Below are positions 128-37,912 of a DNA stretch of 45,709 nucleotides, one piece after another. The DNA is from an uncultured Candidatus Saccharibacteria bacterium (GTDB taxonomy: Bacteria > Patescibacteriota > Minisyncoccia > 2-02-FULL-40-12 > GWA2-44-9): positions 1 to 45,709 of the forward strand of contig CAZPLD010000001.1 in NCBI GenBank assembly GCA_964587505.1, in the 5' to 3' direction. A program made the translations under genes and the position numbers. Under the pieces are notes generated by a model, which worked only from the letters and a program-made list of their open reading frames with translations, was not told the origin of the DNA and did no database searches. Every line of letters starts with the position of its first letter. Position 1 is the stretch's first letter.

Positions 128-156
128 ATAATACAACTTTAACAACAACTTGTCAA
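128..156 (-). promoter_or_regulatory. Sigma70-type promoter of the edge-truncated small gene
   Basis: Minus strand: TTGACA (156..151), 17-nt spacer, TATTAT (133..128). Confidence 0.5.
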
Positions 157-157
157 A

Positions 158-178
158 CAAAAAGCGGCTTATTGCCGC
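158..178 (-). terminator. Intrinsic terminator of the 111-aa gene
   Basis: Hairpin gcggc-aataa-gccgc overlaps the TAA stop and is followed by TTTTTG on the minus strand. Confidence 0.6.
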
Positions 179-24366: not shown

Positions 24367-24401
24367 GTGTCCTATTTTATGCAAATGCTTTTTTTAGGAC
24401 A
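24367..24401. repeat. 35-bp direct repeat, copy 1 (contains 7-bp inverted arms tgtccta/taggaca)
   Basis: gtgtcctattttatgcaaatgctttttttaggaca, identical to 25009..25043. Confidence 0.85.
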
Positions 24402-24998: not shown

Positions 24999-25026
24999 AA
25001 TATACCAGGTGTCCTATTTTATGCAA
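24999..25026 (-). promoter_or_regulatory. Putative leaderless promoter of the PaaX-like gene, embedded in repeat copy 2
   Basis: Minus strand: TTGCAT (25026..25021), 16 nt, TATATT (25004..24999), then 6 nt to the ATG. No SD. Confidence 0.45.
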
Positions 25027-25043
25027 ATGCTTTTTTTAGGACA
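25009..25043. repeat. 35-bp direct repeat, copy 2
   Basis: Identical to 24367..24401. Confidence 0.85.
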
Positions 25044-25092
25044 TTTCGTTTTATTGTTTTATTTAACGGGTAATAATAGTAATTTCTCAATG

Positions 25093-25116
25093 AAAAAACC
25101 GCGCTGGATTGCGCGG
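25093..25116 (-). terminator. Intrinsic terminator ending the GC-rich two-gene unit
   Basis: ccgcgc-aatcca-gcgcgg followed by T6 on the minus strand. Confidence 0.7.
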
Positions 25117-25149
25117 CGGGCTCTGAAGCCCTGGGTAGGAAAGAACTTT

Positions 25150-25575
25150 TTACTTGAAACTGTCGCAGGCGCCTTCGGGGTCCCGACGAAGTGTCAGCAC
25201 GTAGTGCCGCTGACAGTCAGCATAGGAACTCCATTGGGGCTGTGGGGGCGCCGTGTTCTGCTGAACCGGCGACACCACAGACGTGGCGGGCTGGGCGGCT
25301 ATTGAAGGAGTGGCCAATGTCTGATGACCTGCTGCTGACCACCCCCCCACGAAGCTTACGAATGATAACCAGGCGAGGATAGCGATTCCTCCCAAGAAGA
25401 CCATAACTGTCTTGAACATATTCCATTTATGTTCAATCGTGTCCTGTTGAAGAATCAGGGGTTCTGTCAACTTTGACAGGCCGAAGGTCATCTGTCCCTT
25501 CCGTCCCCCAGGAGTCGGTCTTGCTGTGGTCGGCGACGCCTTAGGCGCCGCCGGTGTTGTTGGTGTTGTCGCCAT
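25150..25575 (-). CDS. Hypothetical single-pass membrane protein (141 aa), GC-rich
   Basis: ggaggt SD. Pro/Thr/Ala-rich N-terminus. TM segment VMVFLGGIAILAWLSFVSFVGGW. Confidence 0.6.
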   Translation of the reverse strand: MATTPTTPAAPKASPTTARPTPGGRKGQMTFGLSKLTEPLILQQDTIEHKWNMFKTVMVFLGGIAILAWLSFVSFVGGWSAAGHQTLATPSIAAQPATSVVSPVQQNTAPPQPQWSSYADCQRHYVLTLRRDPEGACDSFK

Positions 25576-25581
25576 TTCTGT

Positions 25582-26436
25582 TTACCTCCAGACCAGGATA
25601 AGTCCCGGTCGGCTTTCGGGTTTAGCCGGCGCTACGCCGACCCGGCCAGTAAGACCGTCGTTACCGACGACCATACTTACGATTTCGCCAGTGTAATCCC
25701 CTTCCAACAGAGCACACTTCTGTTCCTTTGGTAAAAGGGTTTCGAACGGCTTCGTATCTCTATAGACACGAAGTGGGCTAGAACTCTGGTTCTCCAGAGT
25801 GACCATCTCCTGTTCCATGCAGTTGAGACGATCACCTGGCAAACCAGCTCCCCAGAATGGAGAAGTAGGCCCACCCGGCCTCGTGCCGACTGCGACAGGA
25901 GTTCCGTCGCTGGCAATCCGCCTGCCTTGTTCCGGCGACGGAGGCGTGACGATAGTCCCGTTGTCGCGCTGGTCTTTGGGCTGACCTCGATACCGGGAGT
26001 CGTTCACCAGAACGAATCCTGCCGCTGCTTCAATCCAGCCGGCCGCGCCACGCGGATTGTTGATGATCCGACGCGTTCCGTCAGCCAAGGCCACGATCCC
26101 GCCGGCACGCTCGATGCGCTGCCGTCCGGAAAGCGGTTGCCAGTTGCGGTCATACATCTGGTAGAATCCCCTGTTGGGCATCGGGAGACCGTAGGCCATC
26201 CCGTTCCAGATGATGTCTTTCGCCAGCGACCGATACCCTGCCCGGTGTAGCTGGTCCGAGAGACCATCCACTAAGCCAAGGTTGTCGGCAGTGAGCATCA
26301 GCGCTTGATTCCCCTGGAACTTGTACCACCAACCATCGAGGGTCTGAGGAATGTACCCCAAACCCTGGGCGCTGGCCGGAACGGCCGACGCCAGAAATGC
26401 GAAAACGAACAACACCGACACGAGCTTCTTGGCCAT
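25582..26436 (-). CDS. Hypothetical secreted protein (284 aa), GC-rich
   Basis: Start moved to the ATG at 26436 (aaggagaggg SD). Signal peptide MAKKLVSVLFVFAFLASAVPASAQG. Confidence 0.65.
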   Translation of the reverse strand: MAKKLVSVLFVFAFLASAVPASAQGLGYIPQTLDGWWYKFQGNQALMLTADNLGLVDGLSDQLHRAGYRSLAKDIIWNGMAYGLPMPNRGFYQMYDRNWQPLSGRQRIERAGGIVALADGTRRIINNPRGAAGWIEAAAGFVLVNDSRYRGQPKDQRDNGTIVTPPSPEQGRRIASDGTPVAVGTRPGGPTSPFWGAGLPGDRLNCMEQEMVTLENQSSSPLRVYRDTKPFETLLPKEQKCALLEGDYTGEIVSMVVGNDGLTGRVGVAPAKPESRPGLILVWR

Positions 26437-26488
26437 GCTACCCTCTCCTTGTCCTTTCGGACGAAATTCGATTTTCAAAGATACATAT

Positions 26489-26517
26489 ATTATAACAAAT
26501 ATCAGTTAAAATGTAAA
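26489..26517 (-). promoter_or_regulatory. Consensus promoter of the GC-rich unit
   Basis: Minus strand: TTTACA (26517..26512), 17 nt, TATAAT (26494..26489). Confidence 0.6.
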
Positions 26518-26556
26518 GGCCCCATTAAATGGGGCTGAAAACCTGGCTTTTTTGGC

Positions 26557-26955
26557 TTACTTCCTAAAGAAACGCCATCCTCTTGAAACTTGACCATCCT
26601 TCTCTTCTCTGTCGTAAACATAGCTCCCAACCTTCTCGGGCTTAATCTTGTTGCCATTGGGAACAGAGGCAACCGCAGATTCAACGCTTGCTCTTACACC
26701 ACCTAACGGAAGCATGGCATAAACTTCGCTATTTGGTGCGATGTCGAAAGGCCACCACTCTTTTACGCCGTTCGGGAACTTTACCAAGAGAGTAACTTGC
26801 AACGGAGAGCCGGTGTTGTTTTCCAAAAAATAAGGAAGCGTCTGGACTTTGGCCAAAGGCCTTTGCTCGTAATACGGACGATGATACATCTGAGCACTGG
26901 CCAAAACGGGAAGAGCAAACAAAAAGACCAAAGAAATGAGAACTGATTTCCTCAT
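26557..26955 (-). CDS. Hypothetical secreted protein (132 aa)
   Basis: Signal peptide MRKSVLISLVFLFALPVLASAQ. Own TTGACA-16-TAGAAT promoter. gaggaaag SD. Confidence 0.6.
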   Translation of the reverse strand: MRKSVLISLVFLFALPVLASAQMYHRPYYEQRPLAKVQTLPYFLENNTGSPLQVTLLVKFPNGVKEWWPFDIAPNSEVYAMLPLGGVRASVESAVASVPNGNKIKPEKVGSYVYDREEKDGQVSRGWRFFRK

Positions 26956-27023
26956 GTGACTTTCCTCAATATTTCAAACAACCTCCACCATTCTATACAA
27001 CTATTAAGTTTTGTCAACTTAAA

Positions 27024-27485: not shown

Positions 27486-28694
27486 TTGCTTAATAGAGAG
27501 TCATTTAACTTAAAAACGATTAGTAAATTACTCAAAAAAATCACAGCCCTTTTGCATAAAAGCCGAGGGGAAGGGTCGTTTTGGCCTAAATTTAAAAGCT
27601 TCACCGAAAGCCGTTTGTTTAACTTTTATGGAACATTGGCTTTGGTACTTTTGGTTTTAATATTCAAGGGAACAAGTAAAGGTCAGGACACCCTATTCAG
27701 TGATTTACTAAAGAAAACCATAGAAGAAACTTCTGCTTCAATAATCAATATTACTCAATCCCAGAACCAATTAGCCGATATTAACAGTTTAGTAGCTCTA
27801 AGCGGCCAGAATCTTGGCCGTGGAGGAGAAGATTCCAACAACCTTGACCCATCAACAATTCAAGAAAACTCCTTAATGGCCAGTAATCCTACCGCAACGG
27901 ATTATATTGAGGCCGGCTTTAAAAGCAATCAAATTGCAGAATACACTGTCCAGTCAGGAGATCTTTTATCTTTTATAGCTTCCGACTATGGGGTAAGTGT
28001 TGCTTCCATAATGTGGGCAAACAATTTAGCCAATGCCAATAGTATTTACCCGGGGCAAATTTTAAGAATCCCTCCAGTTTCAGGAGTCATACACAAGGTT
28101 AAAAACGGAGATACGGTGGTCTCAATTGCCAAGAAATACGGGGTTGAGCCAGACAAAATATTATCCTTCAATAACCGAAAAGAGGGTCAGCCATTGGATA
28201 TTAATGAGGAAATAATCGTTCCGGATGGGCAGATTAAGTCGCTTGTTGTAACTAAATCTGGAACGCAATCGGCAATAGCCCAGAGGTTTTCAAACCTCCC
28301 TGATTTGGGTGATTATATTTTGGTTCCCACCAAAGGACGGATTAGCCAATGGATTCATGGGAGAAATGGGGTAGATATAGCCGCTTCTTGTGGCACTAGT
28401 ATTTTTGCGCCTGCTGATGCTACTGTCGCAATTGCTGATATCAGCGGCTACAACGCAGGATTTGGCATGTACATTAAACTCATTCATACGAATAGTCCCA
28501 ATGGGATTCAGGCCGAGTCAGTTTTAGCCCATTTATCAAAATCATTAGTGAAAACAGGGGATTCGGTAAAAAAAGGCCAATTAATAGCCCTAATGGGATC
28601 TACCGGCCGTTCTACAGGTTGCCATCTCCACTGGGAAGCCCACGGCTACAAACTACCATTAACCAACCTCCGAATAGGTTCATATTTTAAATAA
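27486..28694 (+). CDS. LysM-domain M23 family metallopeptidase
   Basis: N-terminal TM segment. Two LysM-like repeats (YTVQSGDLLSFIASDYGV, HKVKNGDTVVSIAKKYGV). M23 motifs HGRNGVDIA and STGCHLHWE. TTG start as in the track. Confidence 0.85.
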   Translation: MLNRESFNLKTISKLLKKITALLHKSRGEGSFWPKFKSFTESRLFNFYGTLALVLLVLIFKGTSKGQDTLFSDLLKKTIEETSASIINITQSQNQLADINSLVALSGQNLGRGGEDSNNLDPSTIQENSLMASNPTATDYIEAGFKSNQIAEYTVQSGDLLSFIASDYGVSVASIMWANNLANANSIYPGQILRIPPVSGVIHKVKNGDTVVSIAKKYGVEPDKILSFNNRKEGQPLDINEEIIVPDGQIKSLVVTKSGTQSAIAQRFSNLPDLGDYILVPTKGRISQWIHGRNGVDIAASCGTSIFAPADATVAIADISGYNAGFGMYIKLIHTNSPNGIQAESVLAHLSKSLVKTGDSVKKGQLIALMGSTGRSTGCHLHWEAHGYKLPLTNLRIGSYFK

Positions 28695-28719
28695 AGTGTT
28701 CCGCACGGAACAGCCGCTC

Positions 28720-28818
28720 AACCCTAACCCATTCTCGGGCACGGCATAAATTCCTACTGGAATTTTGCCTCGTACTCACTCCGTCGAGTTCTGTAAGTCC
28801 CTCTAATGGATTAGGGTT
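28720..28818. other. 99-nt rod-like inverted-repeat element after the LysM-M23 gene
   Basis: Outer arms aaccctaacccatt / aatggattagggtt (1 mismatch). Inner arms ggcataaattcc / ggaattttgcc. Confidence 0.4.
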
Positions 28819-28837
28819 TCGCTCATTTTTGAAAATA

Positions 28838-28888
28838 AAAAAACCCGCCTTTCAGCGGATAAAACAAGAGCCCGCTGGGAGCGGGCTC
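28838..28888 (-). terminator. Tandem terminators of the 62-aa gene
   Basis: Minus strand: gagcccgc-tccca-gcgggctc plus ttgtttt, then ccgc-tgaaag-gcgg plus T7. Confidence 0.6.
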
Positions 28889-28902
28889 CGTCGCGGGCAG
28901 TG

Positions 28903-29091
28903 TCATTCATGGCGAGGCAGGGCGCCGAGGTATTCATTGAGTTCCTCAACCCACTGTTGATTGATGGGCCAATTGGCTTCAAGACATCTCTCGATTGTTG
29001 CCTTCAATTCGGTAATTCTTGCCCCTCTAATCTGTTCCTCCCAAATGATTCTGGGTACAATCCCAATAGGTGGTGCTAAAGTACGATTCAT
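28903..29091 (-). CDS. Hypothetical small protein (62 aa)
   Basis: GGGAGG SD lies 4 nt before the ATG. Dedicated promoter and terminators. Confidence 0.5.
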   Translation of the reverse strand: MNRTLAPPIGIVPRIIWEEQIRGARITELKATIERCLEANWPINQQWVEELNEYLGALPRHE

Positions 29092-29131
29092 ACTGCCTCC
29101 CTGTGGTCAGGTTTGCTGTCAGAATATTTAT

Positions 29132-29161
29132 ATCATACAACATCCAAGGATATCTTGTCAA
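29132..29161 (-). promoter_or_regulatory. Promoter of the 62-aa gene
   Basis: Minus strand: TTGACA (29161..29156), 18 nt, TATGAT (29137..29132). Confidence 0.55.
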
Positions 29162-29165
29162 CCAA

Positions 29166-29185
29166 CCAAAAACCGGCCTTTTGAG
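29166..29185 (-). promoter_or_regulatory. Conserved 20-nt promoter-upstream element, copy A
   Basis: Minus strand CTCAAAAGGCCGGTTTTTGG. Near-identical copies at 34638..34657 and 35105..35125. Confidence 0.5.
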
Positions 29186-29220
29186 ACGATTTATATTACT
29201 TCAACGAAAGATGATAATGG

Positions 29221-29365
29221 TTTAGCGACCAGCCATATACCCACAGGGAGAACTTGCGCAGGCATTTCGGCTTGGTTCTTCGAAACGCCGAGCATGTAGA
29301 TAGCGCCGAGCCGCTGGAGCGAGACGACTATCGGTCGAGTCGGGGGTATGTGGCTGGGAGCTAAA
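29221..29365. other. 145-nt GC-rich rod-like inverted-repeat element abutting the comM stop
   Basis: Arms tttagcgaccagccatataccc / gggtatgtggctgggagctaaa, with further internal pairings. Confidence 0.4.
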
Positions 29366-29367
29366 CA

Positions 29368-30900
29368 CTATGCTAGCTCGCTTAACATTTTTTCGTTCAT
29401 GCGCAGATTTACCGCTTCGGCGACATGTTCCTCTTTGATTGATTCCGAGCCGTCCAAATCAGCGATGGTACGAGCTAATTTCTTGGTCTTATGATATGCC
29501 CTCAACGACTGGTTCTTTGAGTTAATGGCCTGTTTGAGCAGATTCTCGGCTCCTTTGTCCAAAACACAGTATTTATCTATGTTTTTATAGTCAATCTCGG
29601 AATTAGCCAAAAGGATTGTATTCTTGAATCTTGATAGCTGAACTTCTTTGGCTTTATTGATTTGAGCTTTGATCTCCGCCATTTTTATCTCTTTTGGGGG
29701 ATATACTTGGCCAACTGTTTCGCGCGGAACATTTATCTGGATATCTATCCTGTCCAGCAACGGCCCTGATACTTTCTTTCTGTATTTTAAAATTTGAGTT
29801 GGGGAGCAATAGCAAACGCCCTTTTCCTCGCCAAAATTACCGCAGGGACAAGCATTCATTGCGGCCACTAAAGTGAAGTTGGCCGGCAAAATAACCGAAC
29901 TCGAAGCTCTGGAGACAGAGATTGTGCCTTCTTCTAGTGGTTGTCTTAAGCTTTCCAGGACATTTCTAGGAAATTCTGGAAGCTCATCCAGAAATAAAAC
30001 CCCTCTGTGGGCCAAGCTTATCTCTCCCGGTTTTGGCCACGTACCCCCTCCGACCATTGCCGGAGCAGATGTTGTATGGTGCGGACTTCTGAAGGGCCGT
30101 TTGAAAGATAGGGGAGAGTTCTTATAAAGTCCGACTGAACTGTATATCTTGGCCACCTCAATTGCCTCTTCAAAAGACATTTTAGGCAATAATTCCGCAA
30201 GAGCTTTGGCAAGCAATGTCTTACCGGAACCCGGGGGACCTGACATGAGAATATTGTGGGCTCCGGCCGCAGCAATAATAAGGGCCCTTTTGGCTGTTTC
30301 CTGGCCTTTTATAGACAATAGCAGGCCATCATCGGTTTCATCCAAAAGTTGGGACTCCTTCATCCGCTGGCTGGACAATGGCCGTGTGTTATTGAGATGG
30401 TCAAAAACTTCTTTTACATTCTTTGCTCCAACAACATTAAGACCTTGAACTATCTGGGCTTCAGCAAGATTGGAATAGGGGACTACCAGCTCTTTAAAAC
30501 CAAGCTTTTTGGCCAAAATTGCCGAAGCCAAGATGCCATTGGTGTGTTTTAAAGAACCATCCAAAGAAAGCTCGCCAACAAATAGTTTTTTGGAAGAATC
30601 GAACTGAACTTGTTTGGTCTCCATCAGGTAGCCGACGGCAATGGGTAAATCGTAAGAAGGACCTTCTTTTTTGAGGTCAGCCGGAGCCAAATTTATAATA
30701 ATTTTCCTATGTTTCGAGTTAGGTGCCGCAAGTGAGCTGTTTTTGATAGCCGAGGCAATCCTGTCCTTTGACTCTTGGACCGCTTTATCGGGAAGCCCGA
30801 CAATATTAAAAGCATGAATACCGGGAGTGGAGTCAACTTCCACTTCTATGAGCTGGGCATCTATGCCGTTTATTGCTGAAGAAAAAAGTCGTATGGACAA
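29368..30900 (-). CDS. comM: YifB/ComM family Mg-chelatase-like AAA+ ATPase
   Basis: N-terminal Lon-protease-like fold segment. Walker A GPPGSGKT. GVLFLDELPEF. TTG start. Confidence 0.9.
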   Translation of the reverse strand: MSIRLFSSAINGIDAQLIEVEVDSTPGIHAFNIVGLPDKAVQESKDRIASAIKNSSLAAPNSKHRKIIINLAPADLKKEGPSYDLPIAVGYLMETKQVQFDSSKKLFVGELSLDGSLKHTNGILASAILAKKLGFKELVVPYSNLAEAQIVQGLNVVGAKNVKEVFDHLNNTRPLSSQRMKESQLLDETDDGLLLSIKGQETAKRALIIAAAGAHNILMSGPPGSGKTLLAKALAELLPKMSFEEAIEVAKIYSSVGLYKNSPLSFKRPFRSPHHTTSAPAMVGGGTWPKPGEISLAHRGVLFLDELPEFPRNVLESLRQPLEEGTISVSRASSSVILPANFTLVAAMNACPCGNFGEEKGVCYCSPTQILKYRKKVSGPLLDRIDIQINVPRETVGQVYPPKEIKMAEIKAQINKAKEVQLSRFKNTILLANSEIDYKNIDKYCVLDKGAENLLKQAINSKNQSLRAYHKTKKLARTIADLDGSESIKEEHVAEAVNLRMNEKMLSELA

Positions 30901-30927
30901 AAAAGCGCATCGCCCCTCCTGCGATAG

Positions 30928-31335
30928 TTAGAATTGCTGTTTACTGTAGGTGCCTTCCTTAATCTGTTTCTTTGTTTTAATTACCTCGTTAAGACGAGCC
31001 TCTAATTCGCTCGCCATGATCAGATTTCTATCCAGATCGGTAGCTTCATGGGCGTTCTCGTCTTCATCTTCCCCGTAATTGGGAACCTTAACTTCGTAAT
31101 CGCCCTTAACCATGGGGTTTTTTTGGGCTATAACATCAAGCTGGGTCCTTAAAGACTTCTCTTCTGCCTCAAGATCCTCATATAATTTTTGTAATTCTTC
31201 CTTCGTCATATTGGTATAAACATAATAACCGTAATCTTTTAATAAAGCAATCAAATTAGATTCGATTGTAGCTGGCTTGGCCAAGAATGAAGCAGGGCTT
31301 AAAAACTTTCTGCGTTTGAACCAAGTTCGAGGCAA
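30928..31335 (-). CDS. DksA/TraR-like coiled-coil protein lacking the C4 zinc finger
   Basis: The coiled-coil region ends ...IKEGTYSKQQF*, where the family normally continues GTYGxCxxCG. The start is uncertain (TTG at 31335 or ATG at Met43). Confidence 0.45.
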   Translation of the reverse strand: MPRTWFKRRKFLSPASFLAKPATIESNLIALLKDYGYYVYTNMTKEELQKLYEDLEAEEKSLRTQLDVIAQKNPMVKGDYEVKVPNYGEDEDENAHEATDLDRNLIMASELEARLNEVIKTKKQIKEGTYSKQQF

Positions 31336-31632
31336 AATTGAGCATTCGACTGAGGCATATTACAATATGGCGAAGGAGAAGCGGAAATTTTAACGATGAA
31401 ATTGGTCAAACCTGAAAGGCATGCCGTAGGCCCGTAACGAAGTGGGGCCAGACATGCGCAAAAGTTTTAAATCAAAAAGGCGTAGAACGCCCCTAATAAA
31501 ATATGTAGTGTGGGCTCTACGCCTTGTATCTGAAAGCCAGTGATCCAATAACAACTCAAATCACCAGCAACAAAGATCTGAACTAATTATATAAAAGTGT
31601 TGGTGACACAGCAAGTGCCAAACTGTGGATAA

Positions 31633-31679
31633 GGTGACACCATTAACTCATGGTGACATTTTCTTGGTGTCACCATTAA
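31633..31679. repeat. GGTGWCACCATTAA direct repeats (core of a GGTGACAC motif cluster)
   Basis: GGTGACACCATTAA at 31633..31646 and GGTGTCACCATTAA at 31666..31679. Related copies at 31602, 31652 and 31776. Confidence 0.6.
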
Positions 31680-31706
31680 AAGTTAGCCAATAATGCCATT
31701 TTATTA

Positions 31707-31739
31707 AACAACCAGCCACTTAGCGGCTGGTTGTTTTTA
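31707..31739. terminator. 11-bp-stem terminator-like hairpin
   Basis: aacaaccagcc-acttagc-ggctggttgtt. The T-run is on the plus strand. It lies 45 nt past the methyltransferase stop on the minus strand. Confidence 0.55.
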
Positions 31740-31783
31740 TTAAATTCTGATAGTGACAACAGGTTGTAAACAGGTGGTGTCAC

Positions 31784-32653
31784 CTATGGAATACGCACAA
31801 CTTCTGGAGAAAATCCAATCTTGTTTTGTATTGACGAGAGGGCTTCTTTGTTTATCTCAATGCCGGTACAATCCCGATTTAGCTGTTTGGCTACTTTCAT
31901 GGTGGTCCCGGATCCCAGAAATGGGTCCAAGATACTATCGCCAGGCCGGGTAAATTTTTGGATAAGCCTGACTGCAATCTCTTCCGGACATTCTGTTGCA
32001 TAATGAGTAAATGCATGATCATCTTTTACCAAGGTTTTTTTTGCAATTTTTGTCATAAAATTAGGTATGGGTAGCCTGTGTTGTAATTCGAACATGGCCC
32101 TAAACAATATCCTTGAACCGGCTAACTTGGGATGGGTTTTGTGGTTCCAAATAGGATTCCAATATAGATCCCTGAGCGCATCTTCAATCAAATCGTGGTT
32201 TTGTGGGTTTAAACCTTGTTTTTGAAACACCAAAACATACTGAAATCGGGTACTGTTCTTTGCTGATGTGTCCAATGAGCCCCTATTTTTGTGAAGATAC
32301 CTGTCCCAGACACCAATGCTTCTAAGGGGGAGCTGGCTGGGCATAGATTTAATCAAGTCATCATGAAAGGGGATATATACAAGACAATCTTTGTCTTTGC
32401 GAAAAAAATCATGAACCCAGATAGCTAAAATACCGCCTTCTTTAAGGGTATGGCAACATCCTTGCCAGACTTTTGATATTGATCTTAAGAATTCTGTATA
32501 ATCTTCAATTGCGCTAAGCTGGCCCCGATCTTGCGAGTATATAACCTCATTCCAATAGGGCGGACCGGAAAGAACCAAGTCAAACTGATTTGCCGGCAAA
32601 AAAGACTGCATTTTAACGGCATCTCCAATGAAAACTTTAGTTTCTGTATTCAT
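31784..32653 (-). CDS. Beta-class N4/N6 DNA methyltransferase (N6_N4_Mtase type)
   Basis: Motif IV-like SGPPYW near the N-terminus and the AdoMet motif DPFLGSGTT near the C-terminus (beta-class order). Confidence 0.85.
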   Translation of the reverse strand: MNTETKVFIGDAVKMQSFLPANQFDLVLSGPPYWNEVIYSQDRGQLSAIEDYTEFLRSISKVWQGCCHTLKEGGILAIWVHDFFRKDKDCLVYIPFHDDLIKSMPSQLPLRSIGVWDRYLHKNRGSLDTSAKNSTRFQYVLVFQKQGLNPQNHDLIEDALRDLYWNPIWNHKTHPKLAGSRILFRAMFELQHRLPIPNFMTKIAKKTLVKDDHAFTHYATECPEEIAVRLIQKFTRPGDSILDPFLGSGTTMKVAKQLNRDCTGIEINKEALSSIQNKIGFSPEVVRIP

Positions 32654-32740
32654 GGTCTATATAAATTCTCAAATTTTAAGCCAAGACACAAGCTGAATGG
32701 TCTCAAGAAGAGGAAAGGGGCTGTGTAATTGTCTATGAGA

Positions 32741-34102
32741 TTAAGGAGTTACAAGAGCATCGATAACCGCCCTAAAAGAGTCTCTGGAAGACCCGAGTAT
32801 TAAGTAATTTTGAAATATTGCATATGCAACCCCGAGATCTTTGTCCGGTATCCTCACGAAACGGAAATTAATGTTTGAGTAGACATCCGAAGTAAAAGCT
32901 AAATTGGAAGAAGGATTACTAATGTTGAAAAGTTTAGCAAGATCGCTAATCATTTTCGGCTCCCATGCATTCATTAGAGTGGTGGCCGAATCGTTGTCTT
33001 TCTGTGTTATTACAATGAATGGTCGCGCAGTAGAACTTCCCAATTGGCCATACAACCCAAATACCCACTCTTTGGTATCTAAAAGTCCAGTAGAATCGTT
33101 GAGTGTTGATGTGTCTATTGAAAGTTTAGTTAGAAATTCTTTAAAGCTATATTTAGACTGATTTTCATCAACAATATCAAATAATTTTATTTGACTTATG
33201 GCTGGCCGCCTGGCATTCATTTCGGCGGTTAATGCTGTCAAAAAGACGCTCGTTGAAGGAATGGAAACTTTTTCTACAATTCCAAGCTTGGCAAGCGGGG
33301 AAAGAATTGGTGTTGGTGTTACTGTCGGGGTCGGTGTAGGGGTTTCTATAACAACTTCAGGAGATAGTGTTCTTAAAACAAAGAACCAATATGAAAATCC
33401 TGCAACAAGAACCACGACGCCGATCCCGATAAATAACATATCGCGGTTGCCGCCCTTTTGTTCTTCTTGAGGAACGTAAATTTTCGGAGCCGGCGCTGGT
33501 CCTCCTGCCTTCGGAGCAGACGGAATCTTTGGAACATTAATGCCCGGAACGGTCTTGGGCGGAGCTATGGGAGCCGATTTTTGAGTTTCACCAAGGTTAA
33601 CGCTTGGAACCTTGAACTGTTGACTTGGCATTGCTGGTTTAGGAGGCATCGGTGGCGGAGGTGTAGCTGGAACAACCTGTTCAACCTTTCTGGGAACAGG
33701 AACTCCCATTGGCTGTTGGCCTTGCTTAAGCTTAGAAATGTCTTCATTCATCGTTCTTATAGAAGATTGATACTCTTTTACTCCTGGAGTTGGCAGTGGA
33801 GCGGTTGGAGAAGGAGCAGGTGCCGGTTTGGGCTGGTTAAACGGCTGGGGGGAAACATTAAACTGAGGCTTTGGCATTTCTGGTTTTGTCGGAACCGGAG
33901 GAGGTGGGGTTGATCTCGGCGCCATTGGAGGCGGCATCGGCGGTTTTGCCAAAGGTCCTGAGTCCATCGAAGGAGAGGTCGGGAAAGGAGGCTTCAGTGT
34001 TTGTGGTATAGGGGTAGGTGCCGCTGGACTTGTAGAGCTTTTGCTTAATTCTCTGACCAAGTCGTTTATGTCCATTGTCTTTGGCTTCTGATCATCTGCC
34101 AT
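32741..34102 (-). CDS. Proline-rich single-pass membrane protein (453 aa)
   Basis: About 220 aa of Pro-rich N-terminal region, TM segment MLFIGIGVVVLVAGFSYWFFVL, then a globular C-terminal domain. Confidence 0.7.
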   Translation of the reverse strand: MADDQKPKTMDINDLVRELSKSSTSPAAPTPIPQTLKPPFPTSPSMDSGPLAKPPMPPPMAPRSTPPPPVPTKPEMPKPQFNVSPQPFNQPKPAPAPSPTAPLPTPGVKEYQSSIRTMNEDISKLKQGQQPMGVPVPRKVEQVVPATPPPPMPPKPAMPSQQFKVPSVNLGETQKSAPIAPPKTVPGINVPKIPSAPKAGGPAPAPKIYVPQEEQKGGNRDMLFIGIGVVVLVAGFSYWFFVLRTLSPEVVIETPTPTPTVTPTPILSPLAKLGIVEKVSIPSTSVFLTALTAEMNARRPAISQIKLFDIVDENQSKYSFKEFLTKLSIDTSTLNDSTGLLDTKEWVFGLYGQLGSSTARPFIVITQKDNDSATTLMNAWEPKMISDLAKLFNISNPSSNLAFTSDVYSNINFRFVRIPDKDLGVAYAIFQNYLILGSSRDSFRAVIDALVTP

Positions 34103-34285
34103 GCGATAATTGTCCGCGAATGCAGTGAGTGGTTACAATTATCAGCACCCGCCTTAGGCGGGTAACCTTTTGTACCCAATCGTTTCACTCTTGGACAAAA
34201 ATTTAATTCTTAAAGTCATTTTAACACAATCATAAAATAAGTTGTAAACACACAAACAAAAAACCGAGAATATCTCGGCTGTGTA

Positions 34286-34516
34286 TTAAGCAGTTAACTC
34301 TTTCAAAATTCCCACCATTTGTTCAAGCTGACCAATACGCCGTTGAATTACCTCCCTAAATGCGTTCTGGCAACTTTCATTTGTCTCCCAATATGCAAGA
34401 AATTCTACGCTTACATTTTTCATGTTATCTACAAGTTTTCTAAAGTCGTCTCTAAATTTTTCAGGCAGATTGTCGATAATTTTTTCTGTTCGATCCTGTT
34501 CTTCAGGATTGTCCAA
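34286..34516 (-). CDS. Hypothetical small helical protein (76 aa), TTG start uncertain
   Basis: ORF track. Terminator ccgaga-tat-tctcgg plus T6 downstream and a promoter about 90 nt upstream. No SD. Confidence 0.45.
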   Translation of the reverse strand: MDNPEEQDRTEKIIDNLPEKFRDDFRKLVDNMKNVSVEFLAYWETNESCQNAFREVIQRRIGQLEQMVGILKELTA

Positions 34517-34607
34517 ACTATCTAACTAACAAATCATTCAGCTTGACCAATAGCACTGCCTTCGATACCATGGTTTTTATTCCTTTTGTAAATAACTATG
34601 TAAGATT

Positions 34608-34657
34608 CTTATATCCCTTATCAGAAAACTTGTCAAACCAAAAATCGGCCTTTTGAG
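34608..34657 (-). promoter_or_regulatory. Promoter plus conserved upstream element, copy B
   Basis: Minus strand: CTCAAAAGGCCGATTTTTGG (34657..34638), TTGACA (34636..34631), 17 nt, TATAAG (34613..34608). Confidence 0.5.
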
Positions 34658-34673
34658 CTAATAAGAATCATAC

Positions 34674-35042
34674 TTAAATAGCCAGTCCTTTTTCTTCTAA
34701 GAACTCCGAGACCGCGCGACTGAACTGGGTTTCAAGTGCTATAACCTTTTTTCTGATTCCAGGCGATTCGTCAACGTTGGCCCCAAACGAGAAATAAATG
34801 GCGGATTCGTGTAAATGAGTCCTATAATCACGCTGTATCCACAACTTGGAGTGTCCGCTTAAGCGGGAGCCGAACCGCCACTCAACTGACGATCGGTTCA
34901 TCAGCATTTCTTTGGCATATTGGAGAGTGCCGGAATCAAAATACTTTAATCCGTGTCCGCCAACAATTTCGTCATATATCTCTATTACCCTGCGCAGGAC
35001 TTCTTCGGTCAGACTTTCCAGACGGATACTTATAGTCCTCAT
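34674..35042 (-). CDS. Hypothetical protein (122 aa)
   Basis: ORF track. ggaaaggag SD before the ATG. Confidence 0.6.
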   Translation of the reverse strand: MRTISIRLESLTEEVLRRVIEIYDEIVGGHGLKYFDSGTLQYAKEMLMNRSSVEWRFGSRLSGHSKLWIQRDYRTHLHESAIYFSFGANVDESPGIRKKVIALETQFSRAVSEFLEEKGLAI

Positions 35043-35073
35043 TTACAGCTCCTTTCCCAAGAACATGGCCCTA

Positions 35074-35125
35074 ATCATACTATAATACTAATAACATTGC
35101 AAGATCAAAAAACCGGCCTTTTGAG
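35074..35125 (-). promoter_or_regulatory. Promoter plus conserved upstream element, copy C
   Basis: Minus strand: CTCAAAAGGCCGGTTTTTTGA (35125..35105), TTGCAA (35102..35097), 17 nt, TATGAT (35079..35074). Confidence 0.55.
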
Positions 35126-35203
35126 CCGATTTTGTCTATTCCCAAAAGCTAAAGTCATGGCACTTTTTACATACCCGCACAGTTTGTAAACTTATAGCGA
35201 AAA

Positions 35204-35407
35204 CCCCTTCCCCGTTTTAGACCGTTTGCCTCCGAGGGTAACACAATGATTAAATTAATCGAAAATTTGCTTATACAACAAATTTTAGCCGGAAAATCCT
35301 GTAAGGAGGAACGGATGCTAAAATTTGTTAAGCAAATTAAGAGTTAATTTAAGCATTTGTCCGAAGGAGACCGAAGGCGCAGGCAACAGGTCGAAAATGG
35401 GGAGGGG
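35204..35407. other. 204-nt rod-like structured element 8 nt downstream of the pnp stop (candidate ncRNA, 3' UTR structure or MITE)
   Basis: About 30-bp closing helix ccccttccccgttttagacc... / ...ggtcgaaaatggggagggg. Internal helices ttaaattaa/ttaatttaa and aatttgctt..aacaaattttagc / gctaaaatttgtt..aagcaaatt. Confidence 0.4.
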
Positions 35408-35415
35408 TGGAGTGC

Positions 35416-37530
35416 CTATCTTTTGCCTTTCATCGTCAAACTTATCTTCCCCATATCGTCAACCGCTTTGACCCAAACGTGGACTTTTTGACCCATTTTT
35501 AAGACATCGGTTACCTTGTTCACTCTTTGCTGGCTTATCTCCGAAATGTGTACCATGCCGTCTTTGCTGGGCATTATTTCAACAAAAGCTCCGAAGTCTC
35601 TGATGCTTACTACAGTGCCGTCAAATTCATCTCCGGATTTTACTTCATAAGTAACTTCTGCAATAAGAGCCAGGGCTTTTTTCATTCCTTCCGGAGTCAT
35701 TGAGGTGACAAATACCGAGCCGTCGTCCTCAATATCTATTTCGGCTCCCGTTTTTTCTATGATTTCATTGATTATCTTACCTCCCGGACCGATAAGGGCG
35801 CCGATTTTAGCCGGGTTAATCTTAACCGTCTCCACCCGGGGAGCATGCGGAGATAATTCCGGCCGGTGAGTGCCGATTGCTTTTTCCATTGCCGCTAATA
35901 TTTCCAAGCGGGCTTTTTTGGCCTGCGCCAATGTTTTCTCAACTATCTCAACGGTAATACCCTCAACTTTTACATCCATCTGCATTCCAGTAACGCCGTC
36001 TTTGGTTCCGGCAACTTTCAAATCCATATCGCCATGATGGTCTTCGGGGCCTTGAATATCAGTAAGAATTTTATATTTATCTCCCTTCTCATCAAGCATC
36101 AAACCCATGGCAATACCGGCAGCAGGAGACTTAATAGGAACGCCTCCGTCCATCAACGCCAATGAGGAACCGCATACGGAAGCCATGGAAGAAGAACCAT
36201 TGGATGAGAGGATTTCTGAAACAACTCTTATTGTGTAGGGGAATTTATCCTTAGGCGGAATTATCGGCTCAAGAGATCTTTCCGCCAAAGCGCCATGGCC
36301 AATTTCACGACGCCCGCCACCGCCCATACGGCCAACCTCGCCGACACTGAAAGGCGGGAAAACATAGTGGTGCATGAAGCGTTTTTTGGTAAGATCTATT
36401 TCCATCGTCTCTACCCATTGTTCAAGACCCGGAGCGGCCAAAGTCAAAACAGAAAGAGCTTGAGTGGTTCCGCGATTGAAGAGCCCTGTTCCATGCGAGT
36501 GGGGGAGAATGCCAACTTCCGCGTTCAACGGCCTTAGTTCATCAATCTTTCTGCCGTCCGGCCTCTTTTCTCCGGTAATAATATTCCTGTGAACAATGCG
36601 GTCTATTTCTTCTTCGTATATAGACCCGGCTTCGTCAATTTTTTTTCCCAATTCCGGATGTTCTTTGTATTGTTCTTTAATGTAATCTATTAATTCCTCT
36701 TTAACCTGTCCGAGGCCTTCGTAAAATTCCGATTTATTTTTCCCCGGAGCATAGAGAGTCTTTTCCAGTTTGGGATCGGCAAAGTTCCTGACTGCCAAAA
36801 CAAGCGCTTCATCGTGAGTGAATACTGACAACTCTTTTTTCTTCGGAGCTAACTCTTTGGCAATCTTATTCTGCAATTTAATTAAGACCTGAAATTCTTT
36901 AAAACCGGCGGCTATAGCATCGGCCATATCCTTTTCGGGAACTATTTTAGCTCCAGCTTCAATCATATTTATTCTATTGGCAGTTCCAGCAACTATAATG
37001 TCAAAGTCGCTTTCAGCTCTTTCTTTGTAGGTAGGGTTAAAGACCAATTTACCTCCAATTCTTCCAACTCTGACTCCGGCAATGGGGCCATCAAAAGGGA
37101 TATCCGAGGTCGTGAGGGCCAGTGATGCCCCAAAAAGAGCCGGCATATCAGGGTCGTTAATGCCGTCAAAAGAAAGGACGGTTGCGACGACTTGAATTTC
37201 ATTTCTGATGTTGTGATTAAAACGGGGACGGATTGCGCGGTCAATTACCCGGCCGGTTAAAATAGCTTCGTCCGTGGGGCGAGTTTCGCGCTTTATCCAT
37301 TTGGAGCCCTTTATCTTGCCAGCGGCATAATATTTTTCTTCGTAATCCACCGAGAGCGGCATGTAGTCCACCTGCTTTTGGTGAGCCGACATAGTGGCGT
37401 TAATAAGCACCGTTGTCTCGCCGTACTGAACACGGCAAGAGCCATTGGCTTGCCCGCCGAGACGCCCAAATTCCACCATTAATGGCTTACCGGCAAACTC
37501 TTCCTTATATGTTTTAATTCCCATGACCAA
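35416..37530 (-). CDS. pnp: Polyribonucleotide nucleotidyltransferase (PNPase)
   Basis: Two RNase PH domains, KH (IGPGGKIINEI) and S1 (GAFVEI...DGMVHISE) domains. Confidence 0.95.
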   Translation of the reverse strand: MVMGIKTYKEEFAGKPLMVEFGRLGGQANGSCRVQYGETTVLINATMSAHQKQVDYMPLSVDYEEKYYAAGKIKGSKWIKRETRPTDEAILTGRVIDRAIRPRFNHNIRNEIQVVATVLSFDGINDPDMPALFGASLALTTSDIPFDGPIAGVRVGRIGGKLVFNPTYKERAESDFDIIVAGTANRINMIEAGAKIVPEKDMADAIAAGFKEFQVLIKLQNKIAKELAPKKKELSVFTHDEALVLAVRNFADPKLEKTLYAPGKNKSEFYEGLGQVKEELIDYIKEQYKEHPELGKKIDEAGSIYEEEIDRIVHRNIITGEKRPDGRKIDELRPLNAEVGILPHSHGTGLFNRGTTQALSVLTLAAPGLEQWVETMEIDLTKKRFMHHYVFPPFSVGEVGRMGGGGRREIGHGALAERSLEPIIPPKDKFPYTIRVVSEILSSNGSSSMASVCGSSLALMDGGVPIKSPAAGIAMGLMLDEKGDKYKILTDIQGPEDHHGDMDLKVAGTKDGVTGMQMDVKVEGITVEIVEKTLAQAKKARLEILAAMEKAIGTHRPELSPHAPRVETVKINPAKIGALIGPGGKIINEIIEKTGAEIDIEDDGSVFVTSMTPEGMKKALALIAEVTYEVKSGDEFDGTVVSIRDFGAFVEIMPSKDGMVHISEISQQRVNKVTDVLKMGQKVHVWVKAVDDMGKISLTMKGKR

Positions 37531-37744: not shown

Positions 37745-37865
37745 GCTCACACAACCTCTATGCCTGACTACGGAGCTAATTTCAGAAATACAATGGGGGT
37801 CTTTGCATGCAAAGACCCCCATTGTATTGGCATGCTCCCTCCGCATGCGTAGAGGTTGTGTGAGC
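37745..37865. repeat. Nested perfect inverted repeats in the NYN-pnp spacer
   Basis: Outer 16-bp arms gctcacacaacctcta (37745..37760) / tagaggttgtgtgagc (37850..37865). Inner perfect 40-bp palindrome at 37788..37827. Confidence 0.7.
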
Positions 37866-37912
37866 TATTGAACGAAGAGTGAAGAAGTACTGAGTGGAGC
37901 ACCGCGAATGTG

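Follow-up and report, generated by a model that had tools for sequence, protein, structure and literature searches.

The 45,709-nt stretch analysed here (the window; contig CAZPLD010000001.1 of assembly GCA_964587505.1, from an uncultured Candidatus Saccharibacteria bacterium) carries on its minus strand three copies of a 25-nt stem-loop, AAATCGGCTCAAAAGGCCGGTTTTT, that we call H. We favour, with somewhat better than even confidence, the reading that H is the terminator-like 5' head of self-contained accessory units which are moved or exchanged between gaps in a backbone of conserved genes. A unit begins with H, followed after 5-8 nt by a sigma-70-type promoter and then by a 5' untranslated region (5'UTR) with a Shine-Dalgarno sequence, a small open reading frame (ORF) and a tail terminator (Table 1). 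Related loci are given L-numbers below, and the lineage to which they and the window belong is that of Yanofskybacteria-like Patescibacteria, ultra-small bacteria of groundwater. We found no earlier description of H-headed units in the literature searched, and the finding combines kinds of element already known, namely accessory units resembling phage morons or mobile insertion cassettes (MICs) and terminator-promoter coupling.

The repeat was first pointed out in an earlier note, made from the letters of this DNA, as a minus-strand element of 20 nt. We confirmed three copies, CTCAAAAGGCCGRTTTTT(G/T)G at 29185-29166, 34657-34638 and 35125-35106, against an expectation of 0.05, a count of three never being attained in 100 shuffled sequences. 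The repeat reaches further 5' to a length of about 25 nt, AAATCG[G/T]CTCAAAAGGCCGGTTTTT, and folds as AAAUCGGCU-CAAAA-GGCCGGUUU followed by a U-tract, so that the loop, 3' arm and T-tract of a hairpin make up the 20-nt element, which is not a free-standing protein-binding site. Canonical H folds at -10.9 kcal/mol with 10 pairs on the transcribed strand versus -6.6 kcal/mol on the other strand, where the fold is weaker because two of the pairs are G·U. Each of the three window copies has a TTTTT(T) run 3' of the stem, as have nearly all relatives, L135 being without it. In an alignment of 16 distinct H variants, the proposed helix was 85.6% paired versus 29-62% when the register was slid, and the one-sided stem changes were all compatible with wobble pairing (U·G/U-A/C-G, C-G/U·G and G-C/G·U). 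In two diverged copies a stem is retained through different pairing, in L129 as AAAACCGGC...GGTCGGTTTT and in L138 in the new register GCTC-AAAA-GAGC. Among Rfam models only tRNAs reached the gathering threshold in the window, and at E<=1 nothing credible was found in 28600-35500 or in 8 related loci.

An 18-mer of H scanned against 596 Gb of genomes returned 101 single matches, spread over all phyla and forming no cluster; among viral contigs there were only 2 matches, both unrelated, and no phage link. Many of the matches outside the lineage are directly preceded by ...AAAACCGG, the complementary AAACCGG arm, which yields the perfect hairpin AAAACCGGC-TCAAAAG-GCCGGTTTT, and the 18-mer belongs to such terminators in Bacteroidota, Pseudomonadota, Bacillota and others. 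Since the terminator form is found in unrelated phyla, the sequence as such is a generic terminator form, and outside this clade the motif is, judging from its sequence, an intrinsic terminator of the ordinary kind, arisen many times over. Two Patescibacteria matches, L034 and L036 (the latter from Candidatus Yanofskybacteria RIFCSPHIGHO2_01_FULL_41_26), are syntenic with the window and match its copy 3 over an exact 27-mer, and a metagenome scan added 22 further loci, mostly groundwater contigs from Hainich and Rifle.

We found about 32 copies of H in 164 kb of related DNA by a Hamming scan, compared to none in shuffled sequences, and every one of them lies on the same strand as the backbone genes. 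The hairpin loop is the same in about 30 copies at non-orthologous sites. A sigma-70-like promoter accompanies 26 of the 32 copies, and in 22 of these 26 the -35 box begins 5-8 nt past the 20-mer, with outliers at 2, 13, 17 and 17 nt (full range 2-17 nt). By comparison, only 5 of 76 terminator-like hairpins in the window have an adjacent promoter, as does none of the non-H terminators of the related loci, and a promoter-like site lies within 22 nt of only 3 of the 29 hairpin-forming matches from unrelated genomes. These counts indicate that the coupling of H to a promoter is real and specific to the lineage, and the first two rule out that a terminator beside a promoter is a mere habit of these genomes. 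The earlier note had named as refutation that the motif might be simply the common terminator of the genome, with no positional link to -35 boxes; it does resemble a terminator, yet in this lineage, and specifically there, it is strongly tied to -35 boxes.

All three window promoters have the hexamers and spacers that the note gave them (Table 1) and begin 1-4 nt past each 20-nt element. Promoters next to H fall into a few homologous classes, and class I (TTGCAAttttatttaagttgtggTATAAT) precedes four unrelated ORFs, with the likeness stopping right after the -10 box. In L127 (3871-5000) and L128 (117-1246) the T-tract of H and the -35 box of the ORF122-homologue promoter are separated by an IS30-like element, which has inserted exactly at their junction and encodes a 329-aa protein with an HTH_38 domain and a weak rve domain; this junction is therefore the target of at least one transposase. 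A related half-version of the element that had been reported before the promoter at 156-128 proved to be something else, namely a different terminator hairpin, GCGGC-AATAA-GCCGC, followed by a T-tract and a promoter.

The window units recur whole. Homologues of ORF62 in L135 and L137 lie between a permease gene and a Wzy gene, and homology to the window runs there from about 20 nt before H through promoter, 5'UTR, ORF and both tail terminators. Unit 2 is homologous from the loop of H to the tail terminator in L138, L139 and L140, with a structured repeat (family A, described below) outside it on either side, A(+) and A(-). The surroundings of ORF122 in L129 repeat the window arrangement, and an independent assembly, L126, reproduces the stretch H3-ORF122-H2-ORF76; in the window, H copy 2 lies 17 nt past the ORF122 stop. 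This recurrence makes all three of them terminator-to-terminator units found in several genomic neighbourhoods, in keeping with the earlier suggestion of co-mobilised mini-cassettes, and the terminators proposed for the 62-aa and 76-aa units were found. The coding bodies of the window units had no nucleotide homologue in the first set of loci; protein searches gave relatives.

The three small ORFs are unrelated, as had been supposed, but one of the sizes (62, 76 and 122 aa) did not stand: the annotated 76-aa ORF has a TTG start and is the out-of-frame 3' remainder of a frameshifted 93-aa gene. Its sole homologue, P0014, has 93 aa, and their alignment places a 4-nt insertion in the window copy; this unit is probably a pseudogene in the present genome. 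ORF122 encodes a real small protein with 8 homologues at 68-84% identity, whose AlphaFold model (predicted local distance difference test score, pLDDT, 86.6; predicted template modelling score, pTM, 0.83) has as its best fold in the PDB one with a template modelling score of 0.30, that is, no match. Neither ORF122 nor ORF62 nor ORF76/93 had a match in Pfam, PHROG or PADLOC, in a PDB sequence search or in a fold search.

A second two-unit array, which mirrors H3-ORF122-H2-ORF93 of the window, occupies the pnp-ProRich gap of L117 (1378-2400, oriented by H). It comprises an H variant, a promoter and a HicB-like/HicA pair (HicA matching PF07927 at 56 bits, HicB weakly), followed by a second H, a promoter and a 59-aa transmembrane peptide. 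Further cargo includes transmembrane peptides of 36-90 aa, a 143-aa secreted protein, a fragment of the Ocnus/Janus family and, in L118, a p298 of the backbone type. This is typical accessory material.

The backbone into which the units are set has a common gene order: rpsO, NYN (170 aa), pnp, the proline-rich protein gene (ProRich), in some cases a methyltransferase (MTase) gene, comM, LysM-M23 (on the reverse strand), YraN, p132 and p298. H stands after comM in window copy 1, L103, L106, L108, L109 and L123; after pnp in window copies 3 and 2, L107, L117 and L129; between ProRich and comM in L117, L120, L108 and L106; after YraN in L114 and L118; and after NYN in L121. The window and L123 have an empty YraN-p132 gap, the stop codon being followed within 6-18 nt by the p132 promoter, and L114 carries there about 800 nt of insert, consisting of A(+), H, a promoter, ORF90, a terminator and A(-). 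The unit of the ORF56/87/90 family was found after comM and also after YraN, and the ORF143 unit in the ProRich-comM gap and also after NYN. Backbone gaps that hold a unit in one genome are thus empty or otherwise filled in relatives, a presence/absence polymorphism that bears out the claim of separately inserted units.

Structured repeats often surround the units. Family A is a structured repeat of about 130 nt, with many copies in either orientation in related genomes, and inverted copies of it often flank H-headed units; we counted at least 12 cases in which a unit is flanked in this way, and in L103 the brackets belong to a second family, B. For one cargo the left bracket is A, B or a module C, and the constant left end is H. 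Family B, module C and a further module D are each a long hairpin, single-copy in the window and multi-copy, in either orientation, in relatives, with B inverted and on the opposite side of a small ORF in L034. The window units themselves are without complete brackets. Between the NYN gene and pnp of the window (37745-37866, minus strand) lies a palindrome, about 120 nt long and nearly perfect, whose terminal inverted repeats of 16 nt are GCTCACACAACCTCTA / TAGAGGTTGTGTGAGC; it folds at -81 kcal/mol (z = -9), has no Rfam match and is a short relative of family A.

We infer from this anatomy how a unit might work. Read-through from the upstream housekeeping gene would be halted by H, leaving the cargo to be expressed only from its own promoter, and the next gene would be shielded by the tail terminator. 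The T-tract of H occupies about -42 to -46, with A-tracts spaced by about 10 nt near -54 and -65, and these phased tracts could give the promoter an UP-like aid, with which the tight but unfixed spacing to the -35 box is compatible, without amounting to proof. Junctions fall at the edges of H, and our simplest guess for the way in which units are swapped among intergenic gaps is DNA uptake followed by recombination at H or at the flanking A/B repeats.

Several observations weigh against the reading of H as the head of exchangeable units. Window copies 1 and 2 fold poorly (-4.0 and -1.2 kcal/mol), though their promoter-proximal 20-mer is intact, and the copy in L135 has lost its T-tract; termination is therefore not essential at every copy. 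No double-sided covariation was seen in the stem among the 16 variants, and pair statistics were not above those of shuffles, a test made uninformative by copies that are too similar. Cargo is also found without H, an ORF122 homologue in L130-134 standing elsewhere behind family B and a different promoter, and homologous cargo in L141 likewise standing behind another promoter. We found no target-site duplication on comparing the occupied with the empty YraN-p132 gap, and no transposase or recombinase tied to the units in the window or the related loci. Most relatives were retrieved by an exact-match pattern, which makes the conservation of H look inflated, and the contigs come from metagenome assembly, a process in which chimeras may in principle arise at short repeats. 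Termination and promoter activity are themselves predictions from consensus.

H might alternatively be a DNA-level recombination site, its 9-nt inverted arms and asymmetric 7-nt spacer resembling the core site of a tyrosine recombinase, at which promoter-bearing cassettes insert and excise and so build arrays such as H3-ORF122-H2-ORF93. Homology does break at both edges of H, with some pairs of loci alike upstream only and others downstream only; the two-unit arrays of the window and of L117 with HicBA begin with H and have another H between their units but none at the tail; window copy 2 has a hybrid appearance, its 5' arm being foreign and its loop and 3' arm intact; all copies share a single orientation; and the IS30-like element sits exactly at the H/promoter junction of L127 and L128. 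However, homology also breaks just past the -10 box of class-I promoters, before their four unrelated ORFs, and about 20 nt before H, so that the crossover point is not fixed. Cargo moves without H too, and no recombinase is linked to the units. Given these breakpoints elsewhere, the movement of cargo without H and the lack of a linked recombinase, we rate site-specific recombination at H as unlikely and prefer a looser modular shuffling, possibly by way of DNA uptake and recombination at H and at the A and B repeats. Variation restricted to wobble changes also speaks for a hairpin in a single strand or in RNA rather than for a duplex binding site, and the sequence is a plain terminator in unrelated phyla. 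A more far-reaching proposal makes H the core site of a recombination system of Patescibacteria, hairpin- or site-specific and not described before, that would capture promoter-bearing cassettes insulated by terminators and shuffle them into intergenic gaps. Such a system would resemble an integron platform but have no recognisable integrase, and the inverted A/B repeats of about 130 nt would serve as its accessory landing or bracketing sequences; this proposal seems to us quite improbable.

We likewise doubt that H acts mainly as DNA on the downstream promoter, whether as an UP-like or curved element or as an operator through which a dimeric regulator would control the small genes together, even though the distance to the -35 box is mostly a tight 5-8 nt, the T- and A-tracts are phased, the decayed window copies 1 and 2 keep the promoter-proximal 20-mer better than the distal arm, and a conserved loop is not needed by a plain terminator. 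A spacing that ranges over 2-17 nt does not keep helical phase, the match to the UP consensus is poor, with a GC-rich core breaking the A/T tracts, and no regulator gene is associated. UP elements are A/T-rich over -38 to -59 and keep a fixed distance to the -35 box. The insertion sequence (IS) in L127 and L128 parts H from the promoter without loss of the ORF, the L135 copy does without its T-tract, and the conservation of the loop is partly an artefact of retrieval. The earlier note had read the quasi-palindrome as resembling a dimeric-regulator site; it turns out to be part of a longer hairpin with a T-tract, that is, terminator anatomy, and the variable spacing, the wobble-type variation and the failure to find a cognate regulator all count against that idea. 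Finally, that the window simply holds three ordinary terminators, similar by chance, beside promoters in a compact genome is contradicted by the comparative data, and we give it almost no credence. The hairpin form AAAACCGGC...GCCGGTTTT does arise independently in many phyla, and intergenic regions are short (the p132 promoter, for example, lies 6 nt past the YraN stop). Against this stand three 20-nt matches where 0.05 are expected, an identical loop in about 30 copies at non-orthologous sites, a promoter coupling that other terminators of these loci lack and that is rare (3/29) for the same hairpin in unrelated genomes, and whole units that recur in other neighbourhoods.

The Patescibacteria, or CPR (candidate phyla radiation), have tiny, streamlined genomes, and little is known of how they gain and express accessory genes. 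Our data point to a simple, reusable unit with a strong promoter that is exchanged among the few permissive gaps between housekeeping genes and carries toxin-antitoxin pairs, membrane peptides and secreted proteins. If the reading of H as the head of such units is right, H would offer a sequence handle for strain-variable accessory genes in uncultured bacteria, a natural insulated expression cassette with a hard-wired coupling of terminator and promoter, and an entry point to the mechanism that moves the units. The practical payoff would be modest unless a new recombination mechanism underlies them.

Table 1. Coordinates of H copies, their promoters, cargo and terminators, and of neighbouring structured elements in the window.
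Feature	Position	Strand	Description
H copy 3	35106..35133	-	intact hairpin AAAATCGGCT-CAAAA-GGCCGGTTTT with T-tract; -10.9 kcal/mol; about 280 nt after pnp stop
Promoter 3, class I	35074..35102	-	TTGCAA-17-TATGAT; homologues in L106, L114, L123, L122, L103, L129
ORF122	34674..35042	-	small protein
H copy 2	34638..34664	-	decayed 5' arm (TTATTAG); loop, 3' arm and T-tract intact; -1.2 kcal/mol
Promoter 2	34608..34636	-	TTGACA-17-TATAAG; promoter and 5'UTR homologous in L138, L139, L140
93-aa gene	34286..34571	-	ATG at 34571; frameshifted by GTTA duplication at 34530-34523; 76-aa ORF is 34516-34286
Tail terminator, unit 2	34256..34280	-	AGCCGAGATATTCTCGG and T-tract; hairpin 34280-34262; cross-genome homology stops here
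H copy 1	29166..29192	-	single stem mismatch (CGTC for CGGC); -4.0 kcal/mol
Promoter 1	29132..29161	-	TTGACA-18-TATGAT; promoter and 5'UTR homologous in L135, L137
ORF62	28903..29091	-	small protein; two 62-aa homologues; no family matches
Tail terminators, unit 1 (n=2)	28843..28889	-	28889-28867 and 28860-28843; L135 homology stops at second T-tract
Module C	35196..35413	-	about 218 nt, structured, between pnp and H copy 3; in L106 after pnp and after comM
Family B repeat	29223..29361	-	long hairpin of about 139 nt between comM stop and H copy 1; brackets unit in L103
Module D	28716..28823	-	108-nt hairpin repeat between unit 1 tail and LysM-M23 terminator; L103, L106, L122, L123, both orientations
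Separate terminator-promoter junction	128..178	-	hairpin at 178-164, T-tract, TTGACA-17-TATTAT; no copy of H

Other parts of the window showed features of their own. A perfect 35-nt repeat at 24367-24401 and 25009-25043, TGTCCTAAAAAAAGCATTTGCATAAAATAGGACAC on the minus strand, has GTCCTA...TAGGAC arms around ATTTGCAT; its copies stand just before a 193-aa gene and the next gene (146 aa) and overlap likely -35/-10 elements, and its sequence suggests an operator or promoter common to both genes. Some relatives (L106) lack the 193-aa gene. At 31602-31674, with a further part at 31778-31784, four GGTGACA/TGTCACC motifs cluster within 73 nt before a promoter-like site and a structured stretch, which ends in a terminator at 31494-31476 and has no Rfam match. 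This cluster is conserved in relatives and is also found after ProRich in L106 and L108, and the region could be a regulated small RNA or leader. The stretch 25000-27000 is GC-rich (0.51-0.58 versus about 0.42 elsewhere) and codes for secreted proteins of 298 and 132 aa without a Pfam match; since homologues occupy the equivalent position in relatives, we count it as backbone and not as a recent island.

Compared with known systems, H is like Rho-independent terminators, which take the form A-tract, CCGGC stem, loop, GCCGG, T-tract: it has the same stem with a GC core extended by A-U pairs, the same 3' T-tract and the same sense position downstream of genes. Terminators at unrelated loci normally differ, whereas the sequence and loop of H are reused at many non-orthologous sites and, unlike ordinary terminators, H is tied to a promoter 5-8 nt downstream. 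Integron attC sites, which are 57-141 nt long, have R''/L''/L'/R' boxes (AAC...GTT) and lie at the 3' end of promoterless cassettes beside intI, likewise separate small and mostly orphan genes in arrays of one orientation by a conserved structured element. H is 25 nt long and lacks the AAC/GTT core. The units stand dispersed between housekeeping genes, carry promoters of their own and have H at their 5' end, and no intI or other integrase gene was found near H units; we rejected this identity. DNA uptake sequences (DUS, or uptake signal sequences, USS) are strongly over-represented genome-wide, at about 1 per kb and in both orientations. H has 3 copies in 45.7 kb, all on one strand, and its k-mers are not among the top 10- to 14-mers, so it was rejected as such a sequence as well.

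Phage morons are autonomous promoter-ORF-terminator units inserted between conserved phage genes. The H units resemble them as small orphan genes with their own promoter and terminator, placed between conserved genes and present or absent among relatives, but they lie in a chromosome among housekeeping genes with no prophage, the cargo of the window units has no PHROG matches, and they carry an extra conserved terminator before the promoter. Minimal mobile elements of Neisseria place different genes, according to strain, in one gap between conserved flanks. In the genomes with H, too, one gap can hold different genes, but a given unit also turns up in more than one gap, and replacement mediated by the flanks does not by itself account for that. 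The concept of minimal mobile elements is mentioned in PMC2784325 and other papers, and PMC10633639 reports competence in another group of Patescibacteria, by analogy with which exchange of units through natural transformation would be plausible.

Cargo bracketed by MITEs (miniature transposable elements with inverted repeats, reviewed in PMC10969869), as in MICs, shares with the H units a non-autonomous character without transposase, inverted brackets (here A/B, of about 130 nt) and passenger genes. In contrast, the H units show neither a target-site duplication nor a matching transposase, and H, not the bracket, is what stays constant. We rejected H itself as a repeat of the MITE or repetitive extragenic palindromic (REP) type, since it consists of one 25-nt hairpin whose orientation never varies; families A and B come closer to that description. 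Polymerase can slide and re-initiate at a nearby promoter after termination (PMC11364550), and the available text of a 2026 preprint claims widespread promoter-terminator coupling (bioRxiv 10.64898/2026.08.19.745784). The H units share with such coupling and RNA polymerase recycling a terminator directly before a promoter on the same strand, but the reports, as far as their available text goes, concern the general genome organisation of model bacteria and describe no single reused terminator that heads mobile units. Highly similar promoter regions before non-homologous genes have been described as putative mobile promoters (PMC3575422), and the head formed by H and the class-I promoter before four unrelated ORFs is alike in this respect; what differs is that the H module joins a terminator to the promoter and usually travels with an ORF and a tail terminator.

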